In this document: one piece after another, positions 33,264-53,928 of the stretch
How positions within the stretch are numbered: position 1 is the first letter of the stretch
Layout: each line of letters begins with the position of its first letter
DNA from: an uncultured Methanosarcinales archaeon
GTDB taxonomy: Archaea; Nanobdellota; Nanobdellia; Woesearchaeales; GW2011-AR9
DNA length: 57,944 bases
Assembly (NCBI GenBank): GCA_964542815.1
Contig: CAZIUU010000001.1
Coordinates: 12,206 to 70,149 of the forward strand
Direction: 5' to 3'
Notes under the pieces: generated by a model
What the model saw: the letters and a program-made list of their open reading frames with translations, nothing else
What the model was told of the DNA's origin: nothing
The model's database searches: none
Translations under genes and position numbers: made by a program

Positions 33264-33264
33264 A

Positions 33265-34902: not shown

Positions 34903-34975
34903 GGGGCGATAACCTTAAACATTAATATTTAAACCTTAACACCCAAACATTAACATTAAGTCTGGAGATAAAATA

Positions 34976-38154: not shown

Positions 38155-38162
38155 GCGCAAAC

Positions 38163-39587
38163 ATGAAAATATACGTAAGAGACGAAATAAACCGGCTGCA
38201 TGACCGGCGGGAGGATGCTCATTGTACTTCCAGCTTTAAAGATAAGGTGGGGAATAAATGGGAAATAGTTATAATTGCTGATGGGTTGAGCGGCTATCAT
38301 GGTGCAGTTGCCAGTGGAAAAAGTGTTAATGCGGTTAGGAACTATTTAACGGAGATTTTATCGCGAGATAAAGAATATTCTCCCGAAAACGCATTAAAGG
38401 GAGCTGTGCTCCATGCGAATGAGGAGTTGGAAAAAATCGGCACTACTTACACCACTATAGACACGGTTCTACTCTCTGAAGACAAATTGTATCTTGCCCA
38501 TCTGGGAGATAGCAGAGTGTATCTTGGTTTTGGGAGCACTTTAGAACTGGTGACTGAAGACCAGGGTGATTCTAATGGCCCTAAAAATTATATTGGATGC
38601 ACCTATATCGAAGGTAACTCTAAAAATATTGCTGCCAGAGTGGAATTGGCCGTAACCGAACTCCTCTCTAAAGGATATGCTAGGCCCTCTGAAATCTTGC
38701 TGGCTACTGATGGATTAATGAGTCGAGTAACCGATGCTGAGATCACTGAAATATGGGCCGATGCCCACAAAGTAAATTACGATCCCTCGGCAGTACTGGA
38801 GAAGTTCGTAGAACGTATTCGCCGTCCGGTTGGCAAGTTGAGTGAGCTGACAGAAAATCAAATACGGCGTATCGTGGGAGGGATACCAGATTTTAATCTT
38901 GGTCCTGGTGATTCTAAAGAGCAGATGATTGAGAAGATTTTAGATGCATATGTCCGAAGAGAAAGCGGGGAGTTGGTGAAAAGGATTGATGGAAATCTGA
39001 AGTATGACGATGCAACTCTGATTCTGGTCGACTTAAAAGATTCTGTTGGCAACAGTTTTGACGAATTAACAAAAGTTAAGATAAAACTTCCTGAAGTAGA
39101 GGGTGAGCGAGATGTATTTCGGGCTGATGCAATTGCAAAAGGAGAAAGAATCTCTCAGCTCACCGAAGAGAAAAGCAGCTTAGACGATACAATAAGAACA
39201 GAGAGGGAAGAAAGAAGAATTGAAGTAGAGAGATCGTTGGCGGAAATACAAGGATTAAACCAAACCATTTCTTCTCAACAGTTAACTATTGGTGATTATG
39301 TTCATAAGCTGGTTGAGATGATGGACAACACCTATTCCCTCGTTGAAAGGTACTTTACCCATCTAAAATCAGACGGCTTACCAAGACCACCTGTTGAAGA
39401 TGTAAACTTAATACAAATATTGCCTCCTGGGGAGAGAGGTAAACTACTACAAATATTTACAGAAGGGGTTAAATTAAAGGGAGAGTTGCCCACGACCTCT
39501 GGGCCGTCCTTAACTAAAAAAGTTGTTGGGGGCATTGGAAAAAGTGTTGTTGGGGTTTTAAAGTGGGGGGAGGAGAAAGATGAGTGA
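38163..39587 (+). CDS. PP2C-family Ser/Thr phosphatase with a C-terminal coiled coil
   Basis: IIADGLSGYHGAVAS, LAHLGDSRVYL, LATDGLMSRV and DDATLILVDL match the PP2C metal-binding motifs in order. Confidence 0.8.
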   Translation: MKIYVRDEINRLHDRREDAHCTSSFKDKVGNKWEIVIIADGLSGYHGAVASGKSVNAVRNYLTEILSRDKEYSPENALKGAVLHANEELEKIGTTYTTIDTVLLSEDKLYLAHLGDSRVYLGFGSTLELVTEDQGDSNGPKNYIGCTYIEGNSKNIAARVELAVTELLSKGYARPSEILLATDGLMSRVTDAEITEIWADAHKVNYDPSAVLEKFVERIRRPVGKLSELTENQIRRIVGGIPDFNLGPGDSKEQMIEKILDAYVRRESGELVKRIDGNLKYDDATLILVDLKDSVGNSFDELTKVKIKLPEVEGERDVFRADAIAKGERISQLTEEKSSLDDTIRTEREERRIEVERSLAEIQGLNQTISSQQLTIGDYVHKLVEMMDNTYSLVERYFTHLKSDGLPRPPVEDVNLIQILPPGERGKLLQIFTEGVKLKGELPTTSGPSLTKKVVGGIGKSVVGVLKWGEEKDE

Positions 39588-40932
39588 AGCAGATAATCTC
39601 TCCAGTGAGAAGCGCGGCATTAGTCAAGTTGTTGATCCGGAATTTATTCAAAAGTACAACAAACTCTCCAACTTAGTTAGTAGGCTGGTAGAAGAGTGTG
39701 AAGTACGAGATGAATATATCGCTAGCCAAAAAAGGCAGATATTGTCACTAAATGATTGCTTGAGCAATCCCGGTGGTGTAATTACTCTTGAAAGTGTTAT
39801 TGAGCGGGTGAAGACCGAGTTTAGAGCTGAACGAAGTAGGGTTAAAGATTCTGAAGATTTTTATCATTCCCTTACTGCGGTTCTGGGGTTAAGAAAGGAT
39901 GTGCCTTACGCGAGTGTAATCGATTCAGTTCAAAAGCTTAAAGAAGCTCCTAAGGAATTTGGCTTGGAGGGAAGTGGGAATACTGTTGTTGTAAATAATA
40001 ATCCCGGAAAATTACTCTATGCAACTATACTTGGGTCTAGCGTGGTTAGCGGATTAGTCTGTGCAACAGTGTTGCTATTAATGGGATATAAAGCACCAAG
40101 TCCTGATGGGCATCTAATTCGAGCGGCAGAATCAGAAATTGCATCTACCCGCCGTCCTCTGGAGATATCAGCTGATGAAAGGATAGGTAGGTGTGTTAGA
40201 GAAGTTAAAGGTTACGTCTCAAACAAATTATCCTACTTACCAGAGATTGCTAAACTGATATCACCAAGTCCGTCGTCAGTAGCAGCTGAGGCAACAAGTG
40301 TCCCAGAAACAGCATTAGTATCTGATGCAGCTAAAGTAGCTGTGGGCGGTATGTCTACACCACCTGATTCATCTAAGAAAGACATTACTTCTCCTAAAGT
40401 ATCACTAAGTAGAGTGGGGAGAGTAACTAAAGCCGAGATCAATTCAAAGTATTATACTCTCATAATTAGTGGAGAAATGGAACCAGTTACTTGTAGTGTG
40501 TCTTGTCCAAATACTCCAACAGTTACTAAACATTTAGATAATGTAGTGAATGATTATAAACTGCCGTTAAGCACATGTCCATTATACCACAATGAAATTT
40601 ATACTCGGGTGGTGTGTATAGACAAGCTTGGAAATATTTCAAAGCAGGCCGAAACTAGAACTAAAGTAAGTCTTAAGCTAGGAAAGAGCCCATCTAAGTC
40701 AGGTACGAAAACTGAGGTGGTTCCTGAGTCAGCAGTTGTGTCGCCGGAGGCAAGCACCACTAAAACTGATACCGTTTCTAATCCTGCAATCACAGCACCA
40801 GACAAACCCTCAGCTCCACCTGGGCCAACTGACATCAAAACCGAAGTAACTCCGCCCCCGGAAGTTCCAGCATCGGATAAACCCTCTGCTAAACCATCTG
40901 AAAGTGGACCAAACCAAGAACTAACTAAATAA
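39580..40932 (+). CDS. coiled-coil / single-pass membrane protein with an extracellular beta domain and a Pro/Thr/Ser-rich tail
   Basis: 8-nt overlap with the PP2C gene. TM helix LLYATILGSSVVSGLVCATVLLLMGY. PT-rich C-terminus. Confidence 0.55.
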   Translation: MSEADNLSSEKRGISQVVDPEFIQKYNKLSNLVSRLVEECEVRDEYIASQKRQILSLNDCLSNPGGVITLESVIERVKTEFRAERSRVKDSEDFYHSLTAVLGLRKDVPYASVIDSVQKLKEAPKEFGLEGSGNTVVVNNNPGKLLYATILGSSVVSGLVCATVLLLMGYKAPSPDGHLIRAAESEIASTRRPLEISADERIGRCVREVKGYVSNKLSYLPEIAKLISPSPSSVAAEATSVPETALVSDAAKVAVGGMSTPPDSSKKDITSPKVSLSRVGRVTKAEINSKYYTLIISGEMEPVTCSVSCPNTPTVTKHLDNVVNDYKLPLSTCPLYHNEIYTRVVCIDKLGNISKQAETRTKVSLKLGKSPSKSGTKTEVVPESAVVSPEASTTKTDTVSNPAITAPDKPSAPPGPTDIKTEVTPPPEVPASDKPSAKPSESGPNQELTK

Positions 40933-40954
40933 AGATTAACCAATTTAAAAAACC

Positions 40955-43048
40955 ATGACCAACCAAGATAGAACTTACAAATTGAACAATGGCGGCGTGC
41001 TTAGCAATATTGTTAAGCATAGCAATGGCACCATGAGCTCCAGATACACCGGTGATTATTCTGTTGATGGCGAATCCGCACACAGAGTCTTTTTTAAGTT
41101 GTTTAGGGGTGACTCAGATAGCTGTACCAGCCCAGCCAGCAGGGAAATACAGAAAAATGAGATATTGGTTTTAGAATTCATCAAGTTACATTTCCCCCAA
41201 TTAACTTTGTACGAGGGGTACAGCAGAGTTAATGGGGCATTATGTATACTTTCTAAGTTCATCCCAGGGCTGGGTAAAACTACTGCAAATACTCTTTGGG
41301 ACTTAATGGGAGTTGATGATGATTTCAAAGATATCACTGCAGGAATGGAAACTGCTGATTCCCTAATTCGCAAGAGGAGAGTGGTAGCCGAGAATAAATT
41401 AAATTCGTTGGAGGAAGCGGTTTATCTCTCTACAGAGATGTGTGAGCAGGCCGACTTATTCCATGGTGCCCAGCAGAAAAATGCTGATGGCCAGCTTCTA
41501 AAAGACGGGATGGTCTTAGTCGACATTTCACCAAGCAATGTCTTGATTTATCAGGATAATGAAGGAAGAAAAAAAGTTTTACTAAATGATTTCGGTTTAG
41601 CTCGGGAGAGAGGTATAAAAGCAGAAAAGTTGTACAGCCGAGCGTCAGTTAGCGGAGTCGGGGGAAGTTATTATACCACCAAGTCAGGGATAACGGTTAA
41701 TCGGGTATATCATCCACCTAACTTTGATAAGGATTATGAGAATAGCATTGAGCCATCATACGATACTTATAATCTGGTGAATATCTTGTGCCTGATGCTT
41801 ACCGGTAAGTTGGTAGAACCGCTAAAAGAGGAATCCAAAGAAGATCAGACTATACTGACCCAGCATATAATTGATAAGGTTAAAGAGAGATACCCTTTTG
41901 TTAAGGATGAAACCTGCCAAGATTTAGCTAAGATGATTGTTAAAGGGACTTCCACCAAAGATGAGCGTTATTCTTCTGCCGGAAAAATTGCTGAAGAGCT
42001 TAAAGCATTAAGGTTATCTATGCCTGTAGGGTACCAAGCCAACCATCCCACTATAAATCTAATAGCATTGCCTGGCTACCTGAAAGAGTGTCAATTAGAT
42101 TTGCCTCCGAATGAAGAGATGAAAGCTGCACATGATATTTTTATTCCCCCAGCAGCGCCTCCTACAACAGTTTCAGACGAGGCTTTTCTCGCTTCGGTGA
42201 GAGATTACTGCTCTAAGCCCAAAGAGCTGTACTTACTTATTCCGATTGCTGGTGAAGCTAAAATGTCCGATGGAAAAAAAAAACAGACTTTTCGGAAAGC
42301 GCTGAAAATCGGGATTGCTGCGGTTTCAGCCGCCGCCATAGCTGCTGCGGGATATTTTATCTCGACCAGTGACGGCTGCGAATATAAATTGCATGCATAT
42401 GCACCCCCTACCGTAAACCTTCACGAAAAGCGTGGAGATAATGGGAAAATATATGAGTTGAATGGAATTATTAAAAATAGTCCTTATGGGTTATCTAACG
42501 TTAAATTGTACGAAGATAATACTTTAATTCAGGAATGGAGTGATAACTTGGGAACAAGATTAGATGTTAATCGAGAGGTAAGCTGCCCTTATGGCAGGAC
42601 TTATACTTTAGAAGCGAGGGATAAGTTTGGGGGGGTTGGTACTGATAGCATAGAAATAAAGCCACAGGAATTCGGCGGGAAGATGGTCGATTGCCGGGAA
42701 AAAGTTGCTTCACTTTTAGGAATAGAAAATCTAGGCGAATCAACCATAACTGCCTCTGAGCAGGAAGCTTTAGGAAGTAAGTATTCCTATTATTATGGGA
42801 GGTTAAAAGCTAATCCTTTGCTCTCCGAAAAAATAGTAGTTGCTTATGTTGAAGATAATGGGGGCTCAGTGATTGCATGTGGAAGCAGCTGTGAAAAAAA
42901 ACTTATTTCTCTCTATGAACAAATAGCTCCTGCCGGAATTGATGATGTTGCTGCTTTAGATGATTTTATCTTGGGCATGGAGTCGTCTTGTGGAAGGATG
43001 GGTCCAACAGAACTTTACTGTGTGCCACTATCTGTAGTGAAAGAGTAA
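40955..43048 (+). CDS. transmembrane receptor-type Ser/Thr kinase (cytoplasmic kinase, TM helix, extracellular beta domains)
   Basis: LVDISPSNVLIY (catalytic Asp/Asn), LLNDFGLARE (DFG), DTYNLVNILCLMLTG (subdomain IX). TM helix IGIAAVSAAAIAAAGYFI. About 240-aa C-terminal ectodomain. Confidence 0.75.
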   Translation: MTNQDRTYKLNNGGVLSNIVKHSNGTMSSRYTGDYSVDGESAHRVFFKLFRGDSDSCTSPASREIQKNEILVLEFIKLHFPQLTLYEGYSRVNGALCILSKFIPGLGKTTANTLWDLMGVDDDFKDITAGMETADSLIRKRRVVAENKLNSLEEAVYLSTEMCEQADLFHGAQQKNADGQLLKDGMVLVDISPSNVLIYQDNEGRKKVLLNDFGLARERGIKAEKLYSRASVSGVGGSYYTTKSGITVNRVYHPPNFDKDYENSIEPSYDTYNLVNILCLMLTGKLVEPLKEESKEDQTILTQHIIDKVKERYPFVKDETCQDLAKMIVKGTSTKDERYSSAGKIAEELKALRLSMPVGYQANHPTINLIALPGYLKECQLDLPPNEEMKAAHDIFIPPAAPPTTVSDEAFLASVRDYCSKPKELYLLIPIAGEAKMSDGKKKQTFRKALKIGIAAVSAAAIAAAGYFISTSDGCEYKLHAYAPPTVNLHEKRGDNGKIYELNGIIKNSPYGLSNVKLYEDNTLIQEWSDNLGTRLDVNREVSCPYGRTYTLEARDKFGGVGTDSIEIKPQEFGGKMVDCREKVASLLGIENLGESTITASEQEALGSKYSYYYGRLKANPLLSEKIVVAYVEDNGGSVIACGSSCEKKLISLYEQIAPAGIDDVAALDDFILGMESSCGRMGPTELYCVPLSVVKE

Positions 43049-43052
43049 TGGC

Positions 43053-44624
43053 TCATTTGTAATTAACTTTGCTTTTACTTATCCCTTCTCTCAGCGCAAT
43101 GTAAATTATGGCATCATCACCTAATAATTTTTCCCCTACTTTACCAAACTTTTGTTTATCTATACTGCCTACTCTGTCTTTAAGTGTAGTACAAGAATAT
43201 TCCCCTTTCTCATTTATTCCAGCTATCTGCAGGCATAATTGTTTCAGCGAAGAGTCTTGAGTATATCGTGAATATCTAGCTCCGGCTATGGCTAGATCCT
43301 GCTCTTTGACGATGGACATCCACGGAATATCTTTATTGGGAATAGCATCTATTGGTTTTTGGTTTGGGTTTGGTGCAACATCCTTAATTTGTGGCTTGAG
43401 TTCGTATTCCCCCACTGTTATATTTAATTCTCTTTTTTTGGTGAGCTGAGTCGCAGTAACATACTTACTTATCCTATCAATCCAATCGAACTGATCTTGC
43501 AGTAATTTAACTGTGTTTGATTCACCCAAGCGTTCACAATATTCTTTTAACTCCATTGCTCTGTCAGCATAATTGCTTAATCTGGTATAATTATGCGAAT
43601 TGATATTCGCAGTTATGGTTTTGGTTAATTCAGAACATTCAGTTTTAGCTAATTCGGTAAGTTCTTTTTTTCTATCTTCCTTTAGTTTTTTCAGATCATG
43701 AGCTAGTTGGTGAAAATCGGCTAGATCTTTTTTTAGAAGCAGATAATCAGTTGCAGGTGCTGTAACATTATTCGGTATTACCACTTTGTCAACATAAGTT
43801 TGGTTTAGTGCCGGGCTATTATTACTGAGATATACAAAGTCATCACGAAGTGTAATAATTTCCTGCCATAGTTCTCTCTTTACTTTCTGAAACCCTGCCG
43901 AATTTTCGGTTACTTTTTCGATATCATCTTTAATCTGTGTGAATGCTTCTAATGGCGATGCGTCTAATATTGTTAGCTCTTCATTGCTTAATCTATTTTC
44001 AGGTCTTTGTTTAAGTTTGTGTTTTATTCCATCGGCTTTCTGCCAGAAATCATGTTCAAATTCATGTTTAAATTTGATAACCTCATCAACACTAGTTAAT
44101 TGGGCATACTGCTTAAGATATTTTTCTGCCATTTGAGGCGAAGCTATGAATGCTAATTCTGACATATCAGCATAGAACTGATTTAATTGTGTTTTTCCGG
44201 GGAATAATTCTGGGTCGAGATCAGCAGCGCAACGGTACTTGGAACAAAGCTCCATGACCGAGGTTAGTTCTCCTTCTTTATTTGCTTCTGTAGAATTGTG
44301 CCATCTTTTAAAGCCAACTTTTATTTGTGGGGCTAATGATAAATATTCTTTTCGTCTTTGTGATAAAACTTCTACAATCTCTTCAAAAGCGTGATTAGCT
44401 TCTTTAATCTCCCGATAGCTGGAAGGCGGCAAATCTCCTCCGCAGGTTTTTTGTAGATGGATAATCTCGTCTTGTAATCTTCTTAATCCTGATTGAGCTC
44501 GGATTAAATTATCTGCGGTTAGTTGTTCTGGATTAGTTAATGCTTTTCTTCTGTTAATAATCTCTTCCAAACATTTCTTGTTATCAATCCAATACATATA
44601 TGCATCCGTTTGTGTACTCATCAT
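43053..44624 (-). CDS. large alpha-helical protein, unknown function; last gene of the minus-strand cluster
   Basis: ORF track. Helical and coiled-coil composition. No motif recognised. Confidence 0.45.
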   Translation of the reverse strand: MMSTQTDAYMYWIDNKKCLEEIINRRKALTNPEQLTADNLIRAQSGLRRLQDEIIHLQKTCGGDLPPSSYREIKEANHAFEEIVEVLSQRRKEYLSLAPQIKVGFKRWHNSTEANKEGELTSVMELCSKYRCAADLDPELFPGKTQLNQFYADMSELAFIASPQMAEKYLKQYAQLTSVDEVIKFKHEFEHDFWQKADGIKHKLKQRPENRLSNEELTILDASPLEAFTQIKDDIEKVTENSAGFQKVKRELWQEIITLRDDFVYLSNNSPALNQTYVDKVVIPNNVTAPATDYLLLKKDLADFHQLAHDLKKLKEDRKKELTELAKTECSELTKTITANINSHNYTRLSNYADRAMELKEYCERLGESNTVKLLQDQFDWIDRISKYVTATQLTKKRELNITVGEYELKPQIKDVAPNPNQKPIDAIPNKDIPWMSIVKEQDLAIAGARYSRYTQDSSLKQLCLQIAGINEKGEYSCTTLKDRVGSIDKQKFGKVGEKLLGDDAIIYIALREGISKSKVNYK

Positions 44625-44658
44625 GATTAATACCTCCGATGTTTTTATTATTGTTGTA

Positions 44659-44791
44659 GTATGTGCATAGCATCTTCAAAATTCTGGTGAGGGTTATCGT
44701 TGGGGTGACATCCCCGTAGGGGGCAAGTTCCCCTGTCACCATCGCAGGAATATTCTGAATTAATTTTGACCTTATGATGCTATGCACATAC
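44659..44791 (+). ncRNA. UCCCCG-apex structured element, copy B
   Basis: Perfect 16-bp P1 GUAUGUGCAUAGCAUC/GAUGCUAUGCACAUAC. P2 UCAAAAUU/AAUUUUGA. P3 GGUGACA/UGUCACC. Apex UCCCCGUAGGGGGCAAGUUCCCC. Confidence 0.5.
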
Positions 44792-44798
44792 CTTTAGT

Positions 44799-46382
44799 TT
44801 ATGTTTCCATCTGCTTTAAACATAGCTCATACCATTGGTCACGGTATTTGGGGTAGTGCAGCTGCATGAATTTATCGGCTGCGTCCAAAGCCCGCTCAGG
44901 GTTGAGGGTTATCTTTGGAGCAATTCTTAACCGATATGCGTCGCCCTCTTTTCCTACCAGACCACTGGCGGTGAGCTTAGATAGTGAATCTTCAATTGGA
45001 ATTGCAGTAGCATATACATCTCCAAACTTTTGAGTGGTTGAATGATGATTAGTTGGTTCAGTATCAAGAAGGTTTAGCAAAGCTCGGTCTATAACACTTA
45101 ACCCATATAAATTATCTACTAATACCTGTTCGTATAGTTCTATCACTTTGAGATTATCAGAAATCCCGGAGAAAATATATTTTTGATTGTTTTTATCTAC
45201 ACCTGAATTAAATAAAGTTGCTCCGCAAATTAATTGATGCAGATATTTTACTGATGACCTGAATCTAACTTGTTCCGATATCTCTGGTGGAAGAGATTCA
45301 ATTATGTGTGGTAGGAAAGGATTCTTAATTTCTGCAGTTGAGTCCAAGCAATTTGAGATATGGCTTTGCCAGGCAGAATAGTTCTCTGTCGTTGCTTCTG
45401 GCTGCAGTTCTCTTTCGGCAAAGCTTAAAGCCACTTTTTTATTCTGTTCTCGACTGATATCGGTATGGAAGATGATAAACCTACGGTAAAATTCATCATC
45501 GCGTTCTTTTAGATGTTTGTTAGTTATGGCGAATGAATATAATATTGGCTTTTTGTTTATCTTGAATGTATCTACGCCATTTCGCTTGGAATTTGTCCTG
45601 GTATAAGTAGAATCTACTCCCTCGGTTAAGTTCTTAATAATTTCTTCAATATCTTTGCTGAATATTTTTTGCAGTTCTGGAATTACGATATAATTGCTGG
45701 AATTTATCTTTGGATTGTGATATAAGCTGCGGTCGGTGGCTTGATGGATAGTTAAGTATCGTTCAGATGGAAGTGCTTTTAGTAACGCGTATAATAATGC
45801 TGATTTTCCGCTGCCGGAAAGGCTTTCTATACCTATATTAGCTCGAGAAACTAAACCATACATCATCAATTCCCGATTCTTCTCTTCTCCGACGATGCCC
45901 TGAGATGCGAAGAAATAGTGGATTGATTGAGGAGTGATGGTCAATGGTGTGATAATTTGTTTGGTGGTTTGGGATGGTTGACTAGATGATGTGGTTTGGA
46001 GTGGCGATGGTTGTGGTTCTGATTTTGGTGATGAAGAAAGTACTTGGGGTTGGGTTGATGTAATTAGGGTTACGTCGCTTTGATGGGGAGTAGTATCTTC
46101 AACGTATTCTGCATCTATTATTACTGTTTTAGCTCTAAACGTATTTGATGGGTTATGTTTTGAATTAAACCCGGCTTGTAATCTTTTTAATTCTGCCAAG
46201 CTTGGCTCTAAAGAGTGATATAAAGTCGGATTATGAGAATATTTCTCTCCATTATCTAAAAATGAATTGATTGTTTCGAGTTCTGGAGATTCTCCTTTAT
46301 TTATTCTTCTAAGATATCCCTCCATCTCGTTCTTATCTACAAAGAAATTGTACACTTTATCGATTATGGCGTAATCATTCAT
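44799..46382 (-). CDS. P-loop NTPase with SF3-helicase-like motifs, an N-terminal helical domain and a Ser/Pro/Gln-rich linker
   Basis: Walker A SLSGSGKSALL, Walker B YIVIPELQ, motif-C-like ILYSFAITNKHL, then DDEFYRRFIIFHTD. This order and spacing match D5/P4-type SF3 helicases. Confidence 0.5.
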   Translation of the reverse strand: MNDYAIIDKVYNFFVDKNEMEGYLRRINKGESPELETINSFLDNGEKYSHNPTLYHSLEPSLAELKRLQAGFNSKHNPSNTFRAKTVIIDAEYVEDTTPHQSDVTLITSTQPQVLSSSPKSEPQPSPLQTTSSSQPSQTTKQIITPLTITPQSIHYFFASQGIVGEEKNRELMMYGLVSRANIGIESLSGSGKSALLYALLKALPSERYLTIHQATDRSLYHNPKINSSNYIVIPELQKIFSKDIEEIIKNLTEGVDSTYTRTNSKRNGVDTFKINKKPILYSFAITNKHLKERDDEFYRRFIIFHTDISREQNKKVALSFAERELQPEATTENYSAWQSHISNCLDSTAEIKNPFLPHIIESLPPEISEQVRFRSSVKYLHQLICGATLFNSGVDKNNQKYIFSGISDNLKVIELYEQVLVDNLYGLSVIDRALLNLLDTEPTNHHSTTQKFGDVYATAIPIEDSLSKLTASGLVGKEGDAYRLRIAPKITLNPERALDAADKFMQLHYPKYRDQWYELCLKQMET

Positions 46383-46384
46383 GG

Positions 46385-47896
46385 TTAGATAGTCTTAGTA
46401 ATAGTCTTAGTGGCATTTCCAACAGTAAAACCCATGCGCCCAGGCTTTTCATCCTCTTCATCTAAGTTATAATTACCATAAGCTTCGGTTAGGTCTTCAG
46501 TTTTTACTAGAGTAATTTTATCTTTAGATGGTCTTTCTTTTCGTTGTTCTTTGCTAATAACATATCCATCGGTTACATTGGTAACACATTTGTATAAAAT
46601 TGAATTAATCACCCTTCCCGACTTAAATCGCTCATCTTTGCGCGAGAAAGACAGTATTCTATCAAAGTCGATAAGTTCAAATTGTTTTTTACCAGAGTAA
46701 TCTTCTATCTTTTGAATAACTTTTTTATGTATACCAATAATTCCTTCATCAGTTTTAGGATATCCTACATATAACTTCTCTCCAAACCTACTCCAGATGG
46801 CTTCATCAATTAATCCTAGCACGTTGGTTGCACCAATGGTTATTAATCCTGCTTTAGTGCTGTTTCCATCAAGTAAGTCATTTAAAGTCGTAACTAACGT
46901 ATTCTGTTCTTTTGAGTCGGTGTCTCTCCTGAGAGCGATGTGATCAATCTCGTCTAAGAAAATAATAACCCCTTTGTTCTTCCCTTTATCGATAGTACTG
47001 CTGGCGTCTTTGTAATGTCCTCGAAGAATGTTGGCGCTCTCGCCAAAGTATTTGCTGCACAATTCGGCGCAGGGGATAGGTCGGTATTCAAAACCACACT
47101 TTGCAGCCAGGCTTCTAATCAGAGTGGTCTTTCCTGTTCCGGGAGGACCGTGTAATAAGATGTTCGGAAAAAGATTTTTTGGATTAAATAATCCAGTGTA
47201 AAATTCCCAGTTTCTTACTCTTAATTCTGTTTTTTGGAATACTTCTTTTACTGCTTCGTGACCATAGATGTAATCTGCTTCATTAGTACTTTTTTGGTCT
47301 GGTTTTACGATATAAGAGGAGAAGTCAACATCTACTTTTCTCTTGGGAGCAGTCTTGTCAGGGTTTATTTCTACTTGATATCTTTTCCCAGCAATGATAA
47401 CTTCCCAATTGTATTCTTTGAACTTTGGATCTTTGCATACTTCTGCCGCTGCGGTTCGGGAAAGCCAGCTGAAAAAAGATTCAGTTAACGCTTCTAGTTT
47501 CGGGCGAGGTCTGGATTCTTCTAGTGATAGTTTGTATATTTCTAAAGCGTCATTTAATGGGAAAGGCCATTCTTGGCCATAGTTAAGTGTTTTATTATCA
47601 AAATAACTAACCCCTTCTACCCCAGAATATCCAAACTCAGCTGAGGCAGCAGTAGCCGCCAAAGCAGTAATTAATGGCATTGCTAATGATTTGTATTCTG
47701 CTTTTAATTTATCCACTCCCTGGCGCTGCATGGAAGCAAAGTCTTTAATTGTTTCATAAGTTCTCTTTCCATTGGTCTTATTAGGGTATTGCCCAATTAT
47801 TTCGTCTAAAGAATATCTTACTCCATTAAGCTTGGAAACAATAGTATATTCAATACTGTTAAGTTCTGCTCTGGTGAATTCAATTGTTTTTACCAT
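46385..47896 (-). CDS. classical-clade AAA+ ATPase, Vps4/katanin-like ATPase core with a novel ~250-aa N-terminal region
   Basis: ILLHGPPGTGKTTL, SKYFGESANIL, VIIFLDEIDHI, GATNVLGLIDEAIWSRFGEKLYVGYP. Compare yeast Vps4: [26 protein letters not shown]. Confidence 0.88.
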   Translation of the reverse strand: MVKTIEFTRAELNSIEYTIVSKLNGVRYSLDEIIGQYPNKTNGKRTYETIKDFASMQRQGVDKLKAEYKSLAMPLITALAATAASAEFGYSGVEGVSYFDNKTLNYGQEWPFPLNDALEIYKLSLEESRPRPKLEALTESFFSWLSRTAAAEVCKDPKFKEYNWEVIIAGKRYQVEINPDKTAPKRKVDVDFSSYIVKPDQKSTNEADYIYGHEAVKEVFQKTELRVRNWEFYTGLFNPKNLFPNILLHGPPGTGKTTLIRSLAAKCGFEYRPIPCAELCSKYFGESANILRGHYKDASSTIDKGKNKGVIIFLDEIDHIALRRDTDSKEQNTLVTTLNDLLDGNSTKAGLITIGATNVLGLIDEAIWSRFGEKLYVGYPKTDEGIIGIHKKVIQKIEDYSGKKQFELIDFDRILSFSRKDERFKSGRVINSILYKCVTNVTDGYVISKEQRKERPSKDKITLVKTEDLTEAYGNYNLDEEDEKPGRMGFTVGNATKTITKTI

Positions 47897-47933
47897 GGTC
47901 TAAAAAAATAAAATAAATAAAAAATAAAACAAA

Positions 47934-49028
47934 TTAAACTTTATACATCTCTGCGTAAGGGTTATCTAAGATTTGGTCTACTCTTCTTTCCATCTCGTCG
48001 TTCTGAATCTCGGTACTGGTTTTTAATCCATTTACAAATCCGGGCAAAGTGTATCCTTTAGGCACGTCAAGCTTGGATTCAGTCATTCTGACTGCGGCAG
48101 TCATCCGGTCACCCATTGCTTTGTAAAAGTCTTTGACCATTCCGTCCAGAACCTTTATCTTATCTTGAAACCGTGGGACAATATCTCCAATCTTGGTCAG
48201 GGCTTCCAACTCTCTTATATTAATATCGGTGCCTTCCATATACGCTTCTACATTCATGCGATGCTGTTGTACGAAGTTATAAACGGCAGTAGCCACCTCT
48301 ATTCCTTTCTGGTAATTCTCAACTTTCTGATCCAATGCTTCAATCCGGGTAAGGAACTTCTGCTTTAGGCCTTTGTAACCGGTTATGCTCTGGCTATACA
48401 TCACAATATTGCTGTGCAGCCGCTTAATTTCCCTAGTGTCTGGCTCCTGCCCTTTTTGTTTGAGGGTTGCTTCTACCGTTTTTCGCTTATCATAAGCTGC
48501 ACAAATCTCCTTTTCCAGCTCTTTTACTGCTTTGGCACATTTTCTACGGGTAGCCATTGTTTCTATAAACTTCCCCTGAAGCCCGTCCATTTTGGTGTGG
48601 TCGCGGCTATACTCTGAGCCATAAAGTATTTCACTAATTTCTTCTTCAACTGCATGGGCTTCTTCTACTAATTCAGCCAAGTCTTCTTTTCTTCCGGCGA
48701 GCCTTTGATGTGGAGTTCTGAATAAGTTATATGCTTTGATGTACAAGGGCTTAACTAATTCGGGTACATGATCTAATCTTATTCCTGATTTTCCCAAGGT
48801 TTCAGTACTTCTGGTCATAGCTCTGCTGGCAGCTCCTGGTGAGGAATATTCTTCACTGGACTCCTGCACTAACGTATCAATGTATTCCATCCCTTTAACG
48901 TGTTCACTCCAAAGGGTTTTCGGATCTGGGTCTGGCTGTTGTGATATTGCTGGTGCCATTTGGGGCCCCTCAGTGATTATTGGCCCGCTTTCTCCAGTTA
49001 TGCTTTCTTCGCTAGTTGCGTCTTCCAT
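47934..49028 (-). CDS. long alpha-helical / coiled-coil protein, unknown function
   Basis: Acidic disordered N-terminus, then about 280 aa of helical heptad-like sequence. The C-terminus is NDEMERRVDQILDNPYAEMYKV. Confidence 0.5.
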   Translation of the reverse strand: MEDATSEESITGESGPIITEGPQMAPAISQQPDPDPKTLWSEHVKGMEYIDTLVQESSEEYSSPGAASRAMTRSTETLGKSGIRLDHVPELVKPLYIKAYNLFRTPHQRLAGRKEDLAELVEEAHAVEEEISEILYGSEYSRDHTKMDGLQGKFIETMATRRKCAKAVKELEKEICAAYDKRKTVEATLKQKGQEPDTREIKRLHSNIVMYSQSITGYKGLKQKFLTRIEALDQKVENYQKGIEVATAVYNFVQQHRMNVEAYMEGTDINIRELEALTKIGDIVPRFQDKIKVLDGMVKDFYKAMGDRMTAAVRMTESKLDVPKGYTLPGFVNGLKTSTEIQNDEMERRVDQILDNPYAEMYKV

Positions 49029-49054
49029 GTTAGTTCACCTCTAGTGATTAAATT

Positions 49055-49453
49055 TTATTTCTGTCCGTATACTTTGATCTCAGGCTGGGCGGCAACTTTA
49101 GGCTCGCTTCCATCTACAATTCCGTCTAATGGGACGTACTCAAAAAAATATTTTCTATTCCCTAATACATTGCTCTTAGCAATTACTCCCTGTTTTCCGC
49201 TGGCATTGTCAGTAAACACAAAGCCTTTGAATCCGCCTTTCTCAGATACTACATAATCCAAGCTAAAGTCTTTAGATGCAGCCACGCCTTCTGGAATTGG
49301 AACACTTTTATACTTCTCTTCCAGCTCACTCATCTGCTTCTGATATACGCTTTTACAATCTTCTGCGTCGGCTTTAAACGTGAAATAGCCGATGCCTAAT
49401 CCTATTGCTGCCCCTACTCCTACTTTTATCAATCCCGGAATGTATCCTCTCAT
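49055..49453 (-). CDS. small N-terminally anchored membrane protein, paralog of 49543..49998
   Basis: TM helix IKVGVGAAIGLGIGYFTF. DCKSVYQKQMSELEEKYKSVP and DFSLDYVVSEKGGFKGFVFTDNASGKQ align with the neighbouring gene. Confidence 0.55.
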   Translation of the reverse strand: MRGYIPGLIKVGVGAAIGLGIGYFTFKADAEDCKSVYQKQMSELEEKYKSVPIPEGVAASKDFSLDYVVSEKGGFKGFVFTDNASGKQGVIAKSNVLGNRKYFFEYVPLDGIVDGSEPKVAAQPEIKVYGQK

Positions 49454-49542
49454 TTTATTTCCCTCCTGTTTGGTTTTTGTTTATACTTTTGTTTTTTGTT
49501 CTAGTTGTTTTTGGTTGAGCTTTTGTTTAATTAACAAATAAC

Positions 49543-49998
49543 TCACTTTACCGCTTTAGCGGCATAGTCTTTGAGCTTGTCTACGAATCGGTTAGTTATC
49601 TGGCTGTAATCATTTGCATTGTCTTCTGTAGGTAAAGAAAAATTACTTCCGACTAACGGAATCATCTCATCTGGGTTGAGTGATTTATCCAATGGCTCTA
49701 AATCCAATCGATAATTATCTTGAAACAATAGTTGTCTTTCAACCAGCATCTCTTGTTTTCCGCTGCGATTATGGGTTATTACTACACCATTGATGCCTTC
49801 GTCTTCAGCAACAACATAATCTATGCTGATGTCTCTGGGCCCGACGAGACCTTGACGTGGTACTGAAGCATACTTCTCCTCAACTACAGAGATTTTCCGA
49901 TTATACATCTCTTTGCAATTATCGGTGGTAGGATGCCATAACACATACCCGACACCAAGGCCGATTCCTAACATTAACGTATTAGAGATTAATCCCAT
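49543..49998 (-). CDS. small N-terminally anchored membrane protein, paralog of 49055..49453 (start moved to MGLISN)
   Basis: A GGAGG site lies 8 nt upstream of the ATG at 49998. TM helix LMLGIGLGVGYVLW. NCKEMYNRKISVVEEKYASVP and DISIDYVVAEDEGINGVVITHNRSGKQ align with the neighbouring gene. Confidence 0.55.
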   Translation of the reverse strand: MGLISNTLMLGIGLGVGYVLWHPTTDNCKEMYNRKISVVEEKYASVPRQGLVGPRDISIDYVVAEDEGINGVVITHNRSGKQEMLVERQLLFQDNYRLDLEPLDKSLNPDEMIPLVGSNFSLPTEDNANDYSQITNRFVDKLKDYAAKAVK

Positions 49999-49999
49999 T

Positions 50000-50683
50000 T
50001 TAGTTTCCTCCAATTGGTTTATCTTCTGGTTTATCTGGTTCTGATTTGGTCGAAGCTTCAGGATAGATTGCATCACTTAGCCTTCTGCGATAATCGTTTG
50101 CTTTATCACCTAAGAAAGAAGTGGTAGAATCAATCATCTGATCGATACTTTCATGAGTCTCTCGAATTTTTCGGTCTAATTCTTTCTTTCCTTCTTCAAA
50201 TGTTTTTTCCACACAGAATTCTTTTATTTTATCGGTAAACGAGCGGTAGCTGCTGGTTCCTGGCTGGTAATCTTTGCCTAAGCGGGCGAGTAGCGCATCT
50301 ATGGGTACGGCAATTATAATCATCTCTGGCTTAGTTGACTTTGTTGCTTGTGGCTGTTGATATAACTGTGAGAACACATCAACTTGTGGAGCGTCGACAT
50401 TTTGTAATTTCTGCTGTAATGCTTTTACTTCCTGCTGAAGCTGGCTGACTTTAGCAGCATAGTTCGGCTCAGCCATGATTAATGTTGTCGTGGTTGAAGT
50501 GGTCGGTGTAGTTTCTATTTTATCCTGCTTTGGGCAGTTTTCGGCAGAATACAGGCAAGATACTGATTCTTGCACTTTTTGGTAAGTCTTGTTTACTTCG
50601 CCACTGGAATACACTCCGACGCCAAAGGCTCCGGCAGCGAGGGCTCCAATCCCAACGATGTAAAGTGGTGTTTTCCATTTCAT
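50000..50683 (-). CDS. N-terminally anchored membrane protein with a Thr-rich linker and coiled coil (start moved to MKWKTP)
   Basis: TM helix LYIVGIGALAAGAFGVGVY. Linker TTPTTSTTTT. Coiled coil AAKVSQLQQEVKALQQKLQN. Confidence 0.5.
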   Translation of the reverse strand: MKWKTPLYIVGIGALAAGAFGVGVYSSGEVNKTYQKVQESVSCLYSAENCPKQDKIETTPTTSTTTTLIMAEPNYAAKVSQLQQEVKALQQKLQNVDAPQVDVFSQLYQQPQATKSTKPEMIIIAVPIDALLARLGKDYQPGTSSYRSFTDKIKEFCVEKTFEEGKKELDRKIRETHESIDQMIDSTTSFLGDKANDYRRRLSDAIYPEASTKSEPDKPEDKPIGGN

Positions 50684-50771
50684 ACCACACTCAGAGAGAG
50701 AAGTATATTTATGGTTGTGTAGTAGCAGGAGAGACACTTAATGGAAAATTTTAGTCAGGCTCTAGAATCAC

Positions 50772-52274
50772 TTACTTCCCAAAAACAATACAAGTAACTG
50801 AGCCATTACAAAAATTAGCGTTGCTTTCGTAAGGTCCAATTTCTCCGTTAACATAAGCTCCGACAATGGGGATGTCTGCTATTTCAGGAATTTGTTTCAG
50901 TGCTTTTATTTCGTTGTCATAATTAGCGATTATAATATTAAAAATGGCACAAGGAAGCATCAAAACGCATTGTGGTTTTGAATGAAGGTTGATTAACGCT
51001 TCTTTCAATGTCAAAATTGCCGATTGATGGAGTTTATTACTATTTGTGTCCATCATTATATATGGTTCATTCTCTTCATAAGTGCCTGTAAATATCATCT
51101 TATCATTACAGATATCAAAAGGATAACTGAGGGTGTGGGAATTAGACCTTCTTGCAAATGCAGTTAACTTAATCCACTCTTTAAAATTTCCTTTTGGTCC
51201 GGAAAAGAAAGGCATGGTCTTAATAAAGTCCGCTTTGCTTAACCCTATTTCAGAGGCATAAGTTTCTACTGCTGGGGTGAACGAACCTTGCTTTCCCAGT
51301 TTAGAGATGGCAATTTTGTCGATGAAACCGTTAGATAACCTGAAATAATATTCTTTTGAAGGGTTAAACCGGTTGTATCCATGCTTAGCACAAATGGAAA
51401 ATTTTGCAGTGGTTTTTATTCCAATTATTAAAGCCTCATCAGTGTGAACCTTTTGATTAGAAAAGAGATAAGTCTTAGCTAACCGTCCTTCATCTGCAGC
51501 AACTCCACCAATAATGGGTAGCTCTTTTGGAGCTATGATCTTTATTTTAGCTAATATCTCTGGAGTGGGATTACTCATGTTATTATATTTTGATGGCCCT
51601 GGCACAAATAACACTGCCAAATCACTGTCTTTAAGATTAATCTTGTTTAATTCTTCTTTAGTTGGATTGGTGCTAATACTCCACATTTTTGCGTTGAAAT
51701 CTTCATTTTCTCCGGCAAAAAGCATTAGGTTTATTGATCCATTTATGCGCGTATCAAATATCTCTCCAAAAGTGCTGATGCCGGCTAGCGGAACATCTCC
51801 TATAACCGTCTTTATTCCTTCTAACAGAGAATCAAAGCTATCTTCATAGCTTATGCTAACAAACAATAACGCTAATTTAACTTTATCTTTGAATGTCTTT
51901 ATTTGGCTAATGACTTTGCTGGCAACTTCTCTACCAGCGATAAATGCATTCTTCTCTGAGGTTGATGCGGCAGATATTTCTACTCTTGACCTTTCTGAAG
52001 AGCTTTCACTATATATTTTATCTAAATTAGACCCGAACTGAGATAAATCTTTAATCCATTGGTGGTTTAACTTATATCCTCGGTTTGCTTTGTCAATTAC
52101 TTTGTCCCTAATTAATTCTTGTAGTGATTTAAATGTTGCCTGATAGGTTATTTCTTTGTGTTTGCTGATTCGATGGTGTATCTGCTTGGCGGAAAGCGGC
52201 CAGTCTGTACCTAACAGTTGAATGATTTCCTGCTTGGTCTTACTATTAGCTCTAATCTCCGGTAATTCCATCAT
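50772..52274 (-). CDS. wHTH-FIST fusion protein (sensor/regulator)
   Basis: N-terminal wHTH KQEIIQLLGTDWPLSAKQIHHRISKHKEITYQATFKSLQELIRDKVI. FIST_N-like LALLFVSISYEDSFDSLLEGIKTVIGDVPLAGISTFGEI. FIST_C-like IPIVGAYVNGEIGPY. Confidence 0.65.
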   Translation of the reverse strand: MMELPEIRANSKTKQEIIQLLGTDWPLSAKQIHHRISKHKEITYQATFKSLQELIRDKVIDKANRGYKLNHQWIKDLSQFGSNLDKIYSESSSERSRVEISAASTSEKNAFIAGREVASKVISQIKTFKDKVKLALLFVSISYEDSFDSLLEGIKTVIGDVPLAGISTFGEIFDTRINGSINLMLFAGENEDFNAKMWSISTNPTKEELNKINLKDSDLAVLFVPGPSKYNNMSNPTPEILAKIKIIAPKELPIIGGVAADEGRLAKTYLFSNQKVHTDEALIIGIKTTAKFSICAKHGYNRFNPSKEYYFRLSNGFIDKIAISKLGKQGSFTPAVETYASEIGLSKADFIKTMPFFSGPKGNFKEWIKLTAFARRSNSHTLSYPFDICNDKMIFTGTYEENEPYIMMDTNSNKLHQSAILTLKEALINLHSKPQCVLMLPCAIFNIIIANYDNEIKALKQIPEIADIPIVGAYVNGEIGPYESNANFCNGSVTCIVFGK

Positions 52275-53080
52275 TTAACCCCAAATCTTTCCATTACATC
52301 ATGCCTGATTCTATCTGCGATGCTTTTATCTTCGGTTATCAAGAAGATTATCTCTGTTTTTTTGTAGACGAGTTCGCTTTGCATTTTCTTTAAGTTTATT
52401 TCAGCGAGAGTTGCAGCAGAATTAGCTAATTCATCCATGACTTTCTGGAAGTCTTTGGGATAGAGAATCTGAATGAATACGTCACCGATGATTATAGTTC
52501 CATGTTCTACTGATAAATTTTCTTCAGTTTTGACATGCATCCCATAACTTTTCCAGAAATTCATAAAGATGATATCTAAAGGTCCGCCACACTTTGCTAT
52601 GCAATAATATTCATTATTTTTAGTAATCTCCTCTAATTTATGCACTTGTTCTTTTGTTAGGATAGTGGTGTTCCACCAGTGCCGGTCGATAAAACACACC
52701 GGTTTGCCTAATGTGGGGATAACCTTGTTAAATAATGCCTCTTCAACAAAAGAGTACATTTCATAATAGGAGTTAAAGACTATCTTTTGAGGCAGTTGTT
52801 GGGAAAATTGGTGTTTAGTATAATTTTTTTCCAAATGAGAAAATCTCGCACTGGAATTTTTGATCCAATCTAATTCTAAAGAATATTTTTTTTCATTATT
52901 ACTAACAATTTTTTCTTCAACTAAATTGTGGAGATGCTTATGTGCAGCTTGATAAGTTACACTTACTCCATATTTGTTCTTTAATCTGGAGTAAATCTCT
53001 TTGAGAGAAAGGGACCAATCTGTACTTAAGATATCTATTATTGCTTCTTTGACAATTACTTTGTTTCTGGGTGCTTTCAT
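52271..53080 (-). CDS. wHTH protein with a ~180-aa C-terminal domain, paralog of 53077..53928
   Basis: KEAIIDILSTDWSLSLKEIYSRLKNKYGVSVTYQAAHKHLHNLVEEKIV. 4-nt overlaps with both neighbouring genes. Confidence 0.6.
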   Translation of the reverse strand: MKAPRNKVIVKEAIIDILSTDWSLSLKEIYSRLKNKYGVSVTYQAAHKHLHNLVEEKIVSNNEKKYSLELDWIKNSSARFSHLEKNYTKHQFSQQLPQKIVFNSYYEMYSFVEEALFNKVIPTLGKPVCFIDRHWWNTTILTKEQVHKLEEITKNNEYYCIAKCGGPLDIIFMNFWKSYGMHVKTEENLSVEHGTIIIGDVFIQILYPKDFQKVMDELANSAATLAEINLKKMQSELVYKKTEIIFLITEDKSIADRIRHDVMERFGVK

Positions 53081-53928
53081 TTTTTAGTTTGAATAAATTG
53101 CCTCTCGGTTTGGTCTCTTATCCGCTTAGCCACTTCTTTATTCTTCTGAGTTAGTACTTGAATATTTTCGGGGTAATGGTGATAAAAATAATCCTGAAGA
53201 TCTTTCATATTTAATTGGTTAATATTTTTAACTTGTGCATACAATTTTTCAGTACGCTTCACAAATTCTTCGGGATAATAAATTTGTATAATGACCTCTC
53301 CTACAATGAATACATCCATCATGAGTTTTCCGGTTTCGGTAGTAGTTCCCAATTTATATCTCATGCCTAAACTTTCCCAGCTGGGTCTCATTATTTTATC
53401 TAAAGCGGTATTAGACTTTATCAACACATACATCTTTCTATTCTGGAGAGATTCTTTGAGAAGATTCCATTCTTTTTCGGTGCCCACTGGGCTGATCCAA
53501 ACATGTTCGCTCTGCACACAAATGCTTTTGTCTTTGCTTTCAAGAGTATCACTGGAGAGATAATTTAAGATATACATATACAAATCCCACAGACAACTTA
53601 AACTTACGGTGGAAATTGAACTATTTTCTGCAATTGCTTGTTTTAGATAAGCTATTTCTAAAGAAGAGCCTAACTGTTTTACTTTCTTAATCCATTCATA
53701 ATTCAATTTGTAGCCTTCTTTATCGCGAGTTATCACCTCAAGTTTAACTAGTTCTTGAAGAGATTTGTGCACGGCTTGATAAGTCAATCCTAAAGAATAC
53801 TTGTTGTTTAAAGAATAAAAGATTTGGCGGAGAGTTAGAGGGCACCCTTTACTCACTAGTTCAATTATGGCACTTTTGGTGTTTTTTCCTTCAGTCGGGA
53901 ACATGATGCCATTAAGAGCTTTCATCAA
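53077..53928 (-). CDS. wHTH protein with a ~180-aa C-terminal domain; first gene of the minus-strand cluster
   Basis: KSAIIELVSKGCPLTLRQIFYSLNNKYSLGLTYQAVHKSLQELVKLEVI. The C-terminal domain aligns with that of 52271..53080. Confidence 0.6.
   Translation of the reverse strand: MMKALNGIMFPTEGKNTKSAIIELVSKGCPLTLRQIFYSLNNKYSLGLTYQAVHKSLQELVKLEVITRDKEGYKLNYEWIKKVKQLGSSLEIAYLKQAIAENSSISTVSLSCLWDLYMYILNYLSSDTLESKDKSICVQSEHVWISPVGTEKEWNLLKESLQNRKMYVLIKSNTALDKIMRPSWESLGMRYKLGTTTETGKLMMDVFIVGEVIIQIYYPEEFVKRTEKLYAQVKNINQLNMKDLQDYFYHHYPENIQVLTQKNKEVAKRIRDQTERQFIQTKK

Follow-up and report, generated by a model that had tools for sequence, protein, structure and literature searches.

The described systems closest to the locus reported here are the Cdc48/VAT/p97 unfoldases, the Vps4/CdvC ATPases with their ESCRT-III partners and the superfamily 3 (SF3) helicases of the D5/NrS-1/P4 kind. 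Cdc48/p97 removes the CMG helicase from DNA, and SF3 helicases are hallmark genes of viruses and plasmids. DPANN archaea are abundant, mostly uncultured and live attached to hosts. In this study, we analyse contig CAZIUU010000001.1 (GCA_964542815.1) from position 12,206 to 70,149 of the forward strand, hereafter the window (57,944 nucleotides, nt), to whose numbering all coordinates refer. It contains a cassette of seven genes, at the core of which the gene of a putative Cdc48-like AAA ATPase directly precedes that of an SF3-like NTPase. We show that these two genes are kept together in divergent DPANN genomes and that no described system matches the cassette, and we weigh what it could do.

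The ATPase pair and its conservation

The cassette extends over 43053-50737 on the minus strand. An earlier annotation made from the sequence alone (the original prediction) had listed seven open reading frames (ORFs) here, together with one copy of a structured element and, in the same genome, an FtsZ gene. All seven ORFs are present at the coordinates given and are co-directional, and the element and the FtsZ gene were found as well. In order of transcription, the genes and the structured repeat in the gap ahead of the last of them are (lengths in amino acids, aa):

50000-50683, minus strand (ORF reaching 50737): N-anchored protein 1, ~227 aa from M19
49543-49998, minus strand: N-anchored protein 2, ~151 aa from M27
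49055-49453, minus strand: N-anchored protein 3, 132 aa
47934-49028, minus strand: helical 364-aa protein
46385-47896, minus strand: AAA ATPase, 503 aa
47351-47896: AAA N-domain, residues 1-182, followed by a variable linker
46697-47260: AAA core of the classical clade, residues ~213-400, followed by a divergent lid and a conserved T-x-T C-tail
44799-46382, minus strand: predicted SF3-like (D5/NrS-1-type) AAA+ NTPase, 527 aa
45393-45905: NTPase core, residues 160-330, between an N-terminal extension with an S/T/P/Q-rich linker and a C-terminal region
44660-44790, strand not given: structured repeat, one copy (listed as 44695-44753, the full element being ~130 nt), in the intergenic gap
43053-44624, minus strand: 523-aa protein, the last cassette gene

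The start codon of the SF3-like gene lies 2 nt beyond the AAA stop codon. Intergenic gaps are short except for the 174 nt ahead of the 523-aa gene, which contain the structured repeat. Judged from sequence, the conserved core of the cassette consists of two translationally coupled genes for ring-type ATPases, both of which retain their catalytic residues. Upstream of them lies the gene of a fast-evolving coiled-coil protein, downstream that of a large protein.

Concerning conservation, the AAA gene was found to precede the SF3-like gene immediately in all 15 loci that encode the long form of the NTPase (see below) and have upstream DNA available, namely the window, L002, L004/L010, L005, L007, L008, L011 and L013-L020, from Woesearchaeota and one Aenigmatarchaeota. 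The two genes are separated by -11 to +25 nt in 14 of the 15. Gene order is kept at 33-41% AAA identity in L005, L007, L008, L011, L013 and L014, and at lower similarity in L015-L020. Since the same order occurs in loci whose AAA proteins are only 33-41% identical, the clustering exceeds chance, and the conserved neighbourhood that the original prediction presupposed is real. Iterative mapping with hidden Markov models (HMMs) gave a recurring order of one to three small N-anchored proteins, a helical protein of ~350 aa, the AAA ATPase, the SF3-like NTPase and a protein of ~500 aa, followed in convergent orientation by a large Ser/Thr kinase, a variable gene, PP2C, a conserved protein of ~420 aa and a tetratricopeptide repeat (TPR) protein. 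The AAA and SF3-like genes are the only ones with recognisable homology in the most distant loci; their neighbours there agree in size and position but give no profile signal. The cassette is chromosomal and lineage-specific to Woesearchaeota-type DPANN archaea, and apparently it is vertically inherited.

The AAA core matches PF00004 (E 1.4e-29, residues 246-379 by Pfam). It includes SKYFGESANIL and GATNVLGLIDEAIWSRFGEKLYVGYP, both quoted in the original prediction, which had taken the protein for a Vps4/katanin-like ATPase. The scores point elsewhere. Among NCBIfam models, CDC48 (82.3 bits), PAN (72.6), IteA (62.7) and FtsH (60.3) all lie above CdvC (59.2), and EccA reaches 22 bits. The best PDB sequence matches are VAT, Cdc48, AFG2 and p97 at ~69 bits per domain. 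Both quoted segments score higher with Cdc48/VAT/Rix7-type proteins than with Vps4: the second region of homology (SRH) gives 22-27 bits with Rix7/VAT/p97 as compared to 15.5-17.3 bits with Vps4/SKD1, and the segment from Walker A over the pore loop to Walker B gives 75-91 bits with Cdc48-type D1 domains, Vps4 being absent among its 60 best matches and hence below 56 bits. The grouping with Cdc48 that the original prediction had named as incompatible with an ESCRT-like reading is thus what was found, by profile and pairwise scores in place of a phylogeny.

Within the family, Walker A (GPPGTGKT), Walker B (DExD), the sensor-1 Asn and one SRH Arg are at least 90% conserved (22 members). The SRH has this single conserved Arg and no PGR insert, so that the resemblance to Vps4 seen there in the original prediction is real but not specific to Vps4. 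About 24 full-length relatives (33-41% identity) rank as a group of their own above the Cdc48 proteins; between them and the two-domain Cdc48 proteins the score drops from 164 to 145 bits. The window protein itself scores 82 bits with TIGR01243 (CDC48) against a cutoff of 803, having one AAA domain and no tandem D1-D2. Vps4_C (PF09336) and AAA_lid_3 (PF17862) are missing from the precomputed Pfam lists of the family, which hold only PF00004 and generic P-loop families; Cdc48 entries in the same table do carry both annotations. The family C-termini read G..T(K/R)T(I/R), e.g. ...TKTITKTI, with no penultimate Tyr, and the HbYX proteasome-docking motif is not present at them. Taken together, the protein is best classed as a single-ring, Cdc48/VAT-like classical AAA ATPase of the presumptive unfoldase type. 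In its lid, at residues ~425-435 (KSGRVIN), a conserved K-S-G-R stands in place of the classical S-G-A-D, and the lid may retain a sensor-2-like arginine, which is normally missing in classical AAA proteins.

The N-domain of the AAA protein was modelled with AlphaFold2 (residues 1-237, 22 family sequences) at a predicted local distance difference test score (pLDDT) of 80.2 and a predicted template modelling score (pTM) of 0.70. The model is of mixed alpha/beta type, with a short strand, a helix of 46 residues, two more long helices, a beta-hairpin, a three-stranded sheet and a disordered linker. Foldseek found no similar fold in the PDB (best E 0.49, TM 0.21) and no match among predicted viral structures (best E 0.15). 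With neither collection holding a counterpart, the domain as modelled is, in keeping with the original prediction, not a MIT domain, and it is neither a Cdc48 N-domain (double-psi barrel) nor an OB fold. An HMM of the N-domain alone recovers the AAA protein in nearly all related loci, with E 4e-22 in the Aenigmatarchaeota genome and 1e-5 to 1e-8 in the most distant Woesearchaeota loci detected; the AAA protein of L020 was missed.

In the 527-aa NTPase, the original prediction had recognised SF3-like Walker A/B, motif C and RRF motifs. These proved invariant in an alignment of 28 sequences (G190/G192/K193, E236, N288 and R300/R301), the motifs being GIESLSGSGKS (Walker A), IPELQK (Walker B Glu), KNLTEG, YSFAITN (motif C) and RDDEFYRRF (arginine finger). 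DUF5906, the AAA+ helicase domain of vaccinia D5 and phage NrS-1 (PMC9611036), is matched by 12 of the 28 members at E<=0.1, the best at 2.6e-5. Weak winged-helix matches (FUR, F-93 WHD, Mnd1 HTH) occur in several members, two of them located C-terminally. An exhaustive profile search returned 864 cluster representatives at E<=1e-3 and 176 at E<=1e-30, all named ones from Candidatus Woesearchaeota. The catalytic K/E/N/R/R residues are intact in 152 of the 159 best family members.

Among these 159 NTPases, 118 carry a long N-terminal extension (~120 residues, cell-specific) and 39 do not. In a rough neighbour-joining tree, 28 of 31 short forms fall into one clade. The short forms lie in contigs resembling viral ones, have no AAA neighbour and stand beside PolB, primase-like, RNR and exonuclease genes; they match phrog_12057 at up to 5.8e-20, the window NTPase at 1.8e-5. 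With short forms in virus-like contigs and these phrog_12057 matches, the cellular NTPase is best seen as a relative of viral replication helicases that gained an N-terminal extension and a fixed AAA partner.

Three short-form contigs presumably derive from DPANN-infecting viruses. L021 (ENA ERZ27316532 k141_17405) encodes an intein-bearing PolB, an RNA ligase, a PDDEXK nuclease, YopX, RecU and a primase-like gene. L022 (Logan ERR14790934_322259) encodes RNR, PolB, HNH, PNKP and an exonuclease, and its NTPase is fused to a PhoH-like domain. L023 has DUF5131 and a protein with a virion-structural match alongside the short form. The SF3-like protein gave no tblastn match in 72,556 plasmid or 50,697 phage records and has no relative in IMG/VR, the SF3-like gene being the only cassette gene searched there. 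IMG/VR scans with the A2 profile and with P0178 returned no relatives, and no close relative of the L021 protein is present in IMG/VR.

Flanking proteins, linked genes and genomic setting

Upstream of the AAA gene, the 364-aa protein retrieved only three proteins in a word-indexed search. Its positional equivalents elsewhere are homologues all the same: BLASTP gives 2e-20 with the L007 protein at 22% identity, and a family HMM recovers eight. The family shows a disordered N-terminus (in the window protein), conserved YG(S/P) and GLxGK motifs and a C-terminal RVxxI..DPxxD(I/M)(F/Y), which is kept in seven of the eight homologues. A model from three sequences is all-helical at an overall pLDDT of 50, with a hairpin at ~residues 144-250 (H144-191, loop, H199 onward; tip pLDDT 65-84) and a short C-terminal helix. 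Foldseek with this low-confidence model returned nothing at E<=1e-3 and no ESCRT-III, PspA or Vipp1 among the 50 best matches; the best below threshold were ClyA-type toxins, F-BAR domains and SMC coiled coils, which at this pLDDT carry little weight. An ESCRT-III/PspA-like nature, to which the original prediction had inclined, was likewise not recovered by profiles, as none of the eight homologues matches Snf7 or PspA_IM30 even at E<=5. The family profile gave only coiled-coil noise against PDB sequences, and the Pfam scan of the family no recurrent domain.

The window protein ends in ...NDEMERRVDQILDNPYAEMYKV, of which NDEMERRVDQIL loosely fits the MIM1 pattern (D/E)xxLxxRLxxL(K/R). The original prediction had made this fit for DEMERRVDQIL. 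It does not extend to the family: in L007 and L011 the upstream hydrophobic residue of the MIM1-like register is displaced by one position, and owing to this shift the C-terminus reads as a conserved peptide but not as MIM1. A link between the PP2C protein and the 364-aa protein turned out to be an artefact of iterative HMMs, as direct BLASTP shows none.

The original prediction had given each of the three upstream proteins a single N-terminal transmembrane (TM) helix, and this agrees with our analysis: each has one glycine-rich hydrophobic N-terminal helix, and nowhere in the cassette is a protein predicted to have two or more TM segments. Translation probably begins at M19 (50683) in N-anchored protein 1 and at M27 (49998) in N-anchored protein 2, and all three proteins are probably extracytoplasmic. 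In N-anchored protein 1 the Gly-rich helix is followed by a T/P-rich linker and a coiled-coil segment; its homologues come from two close genomes only. N-anchored proteins 2 and 3 are paralogues whose family (11 aligned members from seven loci) has no Pfam and no PDB match. N-anchored protein 3 consists of the anchor and a domain of ~100 aa with a conserved Cys and a DYVV...G.V.TD..SGKQ motif, 93-98% identical in close genomes and 38-42% in distant ones. The N-anchored families were not detected in distant loci that retain the ATPase pair. A PepSY-like reading of these small proteins was unsupported by Pfam, and a type IV pilin reading was dropped, there being no class III signal motif at the N-termini and no PilT- or FlaI-type ATPase.

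The 523-aa protein has neither a TM segment nor a Pfam match. Its family counts 11 members and shows no recurrent Pfam domain, and more distant loci have a similar-sized gene in the same position. PDB sequence profile searches with the 523-aa, the 427-aa (see below) and the small TM families yielded nothing usable.

The structured repeat is present in three window copies (22635-22693, 24967-25025 and 44695-44753) and at 8213-8235 of L004/L010. The full element measures ~130 nt, with a conserved core TCCCCGTAGGGGGCA.GT.CCCC and 42 predicted pairs, 14 of them with both sides changed in a compensatory manner between copies. Its outer CUGA and UGAUG-like strands could form a K-turn; Rfam holds no match. 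In the cassette the repeat is optional: it is found at the same place in one close relative and is missing in the 86%-identical L002.

Convergent with the cassette lies a linked cluster, bordered by a regulator gene:

29886-30683, minus strand: TrmB-family regulator bordering the supermodule
30871-43048, plus strand: linked convergent cluster as a whole
30871-32136 and 32133-33263, plus strand: two proteins of 421 and 376 aa, no family match
33247-34902, plus strand: kinase-like protein
34976-36874, plus strand: TPR protein
36871-38154, plus strand: conserved 427-aa protein
38163-39587, plus strand: PP2C
39580-40932, plus strand: TM protein rich in P/S/T
40955-43048, plus strand: receptor-like Ser/Thr kinase, 697 aa, TM residues 452-470

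At 43046-43055 the stop codons of the kinase gene and the last cassette gene are 4 nt apart, which leaves no space for separate terminators. The kinase family retains the catalytic K, E, HxD..N and DFG residues. In most loci the ATPase pair has N-anchored proteins, a TrmB regulator and eukaryote-like Ser/Thr kinase and PP2C genes as neighbours. Kinase relatives adjoin the cassette in ten loci, and in L017 and L020 they share its orientation, so that the linkage is more than frozen local synteny. The TrmB gene adjoins the cassette also in L002, L014, L019 and L020. Upstream flanks vary, with winged helix-turn-helix-FIST genes in the window, TrmB in L002 and PUA/DUF192 in L004 and L008; PIN, Mrr or KilA-N genes occur near some loci. 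In the window, three paralogous winged-helix regulators (50772-52274, 52271-53080 and 53077-53928, minus strand) directly precede the cassette, the first of them (50772-52274) fused to FIST_N and FIST_C sensor domains; they are absent from this position in related loci.

The window is ordinary chromosome. It encodes FtsZ (16061-17125), ProRS, ELP3 and TrmB, has an even GC content across the region and contains no tRNA gene, and Pfam and PHROG scans found no integrase, capsid, terminase, primase or polymerase in the cassette or its relatives. Two further observations concern other genes of the window. Two overlapping ORFs at 55257-57766 (minus strand) resemble a single class I aminoacyl-tRNA synthetase that a frameshift or sequencing error has divided; one is of 593 aa, the other of 285 aa with an anticodon-binding domain. 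An ORF of 989 aa (4198-7167) holds an internal 67-nt direct repeat (6109-6175 and 6502-6568, 70% identity, 393 nt spacing), which suggests a repeated protein module in a large protein without a Pfam match.

Possible functions of the cassette

We tentatively read the cassette as a phospho-regulated machine with two cooperating motors, a domesticated helicase of viral type and a Cdc48-like unfoldase. The SF3-like protein would be a ring translocase or helicase on nucleic acid, given that its Walker A, Walker B, sensor-1 and arginine-finger residues are intact and that weak winged-helix matches occur C-terminally. Both ATPases may act as a single machine on a nucleoprotein substrate, the AAA ring threading or remodelling a protein partner so that a complex is assembled, unloaded or recycled. 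Candidate clients of the AAA N-domain are the C-terminal peptide of the coiled-coil protein and the N-terminal extension or ring of the SF3-like protein, and the T-x-T tail may dock on the partner ring. The kinase/PP2C pair together with the S/T-rich linkers suggests control by phosphorylation, through which the machine may be switched; signals arriving from the cell surface are suggested by the receptor-like kinase and the N-anchored proteins. The process served could be the control of replication or segregation, the exchange of DNA or interference with viruses. The closest functional analogy would be the unloading of CMG by Cdc48/p97.

Several results weigh against this proposal. The window NTPase matches DUF5906 at E 1.1e-3 and 20.1 bits, below the gathering threshold of 27.6 bits, and the family profile finds no match among PDB sequences. 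Helicase activity and nucleic-acid binding of the protein would follow from family membership only. The flanking helical proteins of near and far loci reach an hhalign probability of <=1%, so that their conservation is positional only. In L015 and L019 no linked kinase lies within 10 kb, and a role directed at DNA leaves the three N-anchored proteins unexplained. In its strongest form, in which the helicase and an unfoldase with a new substrate-recognition domain make up a previously unknown cellular machine under kinase/phosphatase control, e.g. licensing or terminating chromosome replication or moving DNA on host-derived surface signals, the proposal is somewhat unlikely.

The evidence was also weighed for other functions. 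An anti-virus or conflict system, in which the viral-type helicase of the host would be a sensor or decoy and the AAA protein with the kinase, PP2C and TPR proteins would be transducers or effectors, similar to IetAS or STAND/kinase-rich systems, would accord with the AAA matches to PADLOC IetA (3.5e-22) and NCBIfam IteA (62.7 bits), with weak nSTAND_NTPase4 matches in five of 28 SF3-like members, with the virus-like nature of close NTPase relatives and with the adjacent kinase, PP2C and TPR genes, as well as the PIN, Mrr or KilA-N genes near some loci. However, the IetA match is confined to the generic AAA core, where Cdc48 scores higher, the cassette encodes no IetS protease and no nuclease or toxin domain, PADLOC returns nothing significant for the other six proteins, and the cassette keeps its position beside the same genes over deep divergence in a housekeeping setting. 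We consider defence unlikely. A relic or resident mobile element is more doubtful again, i.e. an ancient integrated plasmid or virus with the SF3-like protein as its replication helicase and the AAA and small membrane proteins as accessory or egress genes. In its favour are the hallmark status of SF3 helicases, the DUF5906 and phrog_12057 matches, relatives on virus-like contigs and weak precomputed matches to PF27228, a family whose name comes from a Methanothermobacter locus tag (MTBMA_p00010) that contains a 'p' in plasmid style. The original prediction had counted a plasmid- or virus-derived module among its candidates; the link to viruses stands, through the short forms in virus-like contigs, but the marks of a provirus or plasmid are missing. 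Neither the cassette nor its relatives contain integrase, capsid, terminase, primase or polymerase genes, there is no tRNA- or att-like flank, the GC content is even and the plasmid, phage and IMG/VR searches with the SF3-like protein were negative. Moreover, divergent genomes share the same chromosomal neighbours, and the viral forms lack both the N-terminal extension and the obligate AAA partner of the cellular NTPase.

The three N-anchored, probably extracytoplasmic proteins that lead the operon would find a place in an envelope, secretion or host-contact machine. There, the AAA ATPase would extract or chaperone hairpin substrates bearing a C-terminal signal, the N-anchored proteins would form the envelope part and the receptor kinase would sense host contact. 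The conserved C-terminal motif of the 364-aa protein, the linked receptor-like kinase and P/S/T-rich TM protein and the host-attached lifestyle of DPANN cells are consistent with it. We regard it as very unlikely, as the cassette has no polytopic channel protein and no FtsK/VirB4/PilT-type ATPase (EccA 22 bits), its SF3-like NTPase is of helicase type without a TM segment and the N-anchored families are undetected in distant loci with the ATPase pair. Least probable, to the point of being hardly tenable, is an ESCRT/Cdv-like remodelling system with a 364-aa protein that polymerises like ESCRT-III/PspA and is recycled by a Vps4-like AAA ATPase via a MIM-like tail. The helical hairpin with its short C-terminal helix (predicted at low confidence), the conserved C-terminal peptide and the SRH without a PGR insert, as in Vps4, speak for it. 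It was rejected on profile, PDB-segment and fold tests: CdvC scores 59 as compared to 82 bits for CDC48, Vps4 ranks below Cdc48, Rix7 and VAT on both quoted segments, neither Vps4_C nor AAA_lid_3 is in the precomputed Pfam lists, the N-domain as modelled is not MIT, the Snf7/PspA_IM30 (0/8 at E<=5) and Foldseek (50 best) searches returned no ESCRT-III, PspA or Vipp1, and the MIM1 register is not conserved. In addition, an ESCRT system offers no role for an obligate SF3-like partner. A single-ring AAA ATPase beside a helical protein should hence not be read as ESCRT without tests.

If the reading as a two-motor machine is right, the cassette would clearly exemplify how cells recruit a replication protein of viruses for a role of their own. 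A deeply conserved cassette of two ATPases would also give a handle on lineage-specific biology of DPANN archaea, e.g. the control of replication, the handling of DNA or the reaction to contact with the host. Its standout features are the unmatched fold of the AAA N-domain, the virus-related helicase type and the linked eukaryote-like kinase and phosphatase genes.

Comparison with known systems

The components of the cassette and its linked cluster come from known superfamilies, namely classical AAA, SF3-like AAA+, Hanks-type kinase, PP2C and TrmB. As a whole, the cassette belongs to no described kind of system, a conclusion that rests on the absence of matches: it could be assigned to none of the known multi-gene systems against which it was tested (ESCRT/Cdv, Cdc48-proteasome, provirus/plasmid, PADLOC defence and type VII-like secretion), and our searches of the literature on DPANN/Woesearchaeota ATPases, DUF5906 and MTBMA_p00010 found no description of it. 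The original prediction, which could not assign the combination either, was right in this respect. In PADLOC-DB only the AAA protein matches (IetA, TRIP13), and no catalogued system is present with its full component set. As for type VII-like secretion, the cassette has no EccC-type FtsK ATPase and no polytopic membrane component.

With IetAS the cassette shares an AAA core that matches IetA profiles; it differs in having no IetS-like protease and a conserved chromosomal position, and the match is to the generic AAA core only. Vps4/CdvC with ESCRT-III resembles it in placing a single-ring AAA ATPase, whose SRH has no PGR insert, beside a helical protein with a C-terminal amphipathic helix. In contrast, the cassette lacks MIT, Vps4_C, Snf7/PspA homology and a CdvA-like protein, its AAA protein scores lower with this group than with Cdc48 and PAN, and its SF3-like NTPase is an obligate partner. 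The layout of Walker A, Walker B Glu, motif C Asn and RR finger is common to the cassette NTPase, the D5/NrS-1/P4 SF3 helicases (DUF5906) and phrog_12057. Unlike these helicases, it is chromosomal, has no D5_N, primase or Pox_D5 domain and carries the cell-specific N-terminal extension of ~120 residues besides its obligate AAA partner.

Cdc48/VAT/p97 and AFG2 provide the best sequence matches of the AAA core, with Walker A/B, sensor-1 and one arginine finger conserved. The cassette protein differs from Cdc48/VAT in having one AAA domain instead of two, an N-domain of unmatched fold instead of a double-psi barrel, a single SRH Arg without a PGR insert, no AAA_lid_3 match and a T-x-T tail instead of HbYX. 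With the unloading of CMG by Cdc48/p97 it shares, by analogy, the pairing of a Cdc48-type unfoldase with a ring helicase of the AAA+ class; in the cassette no ubiquitin-like tagging is visible, the putative helicase is of the SF3 type and not MCM, and the link between the two ATPases is one of gene coupling only.

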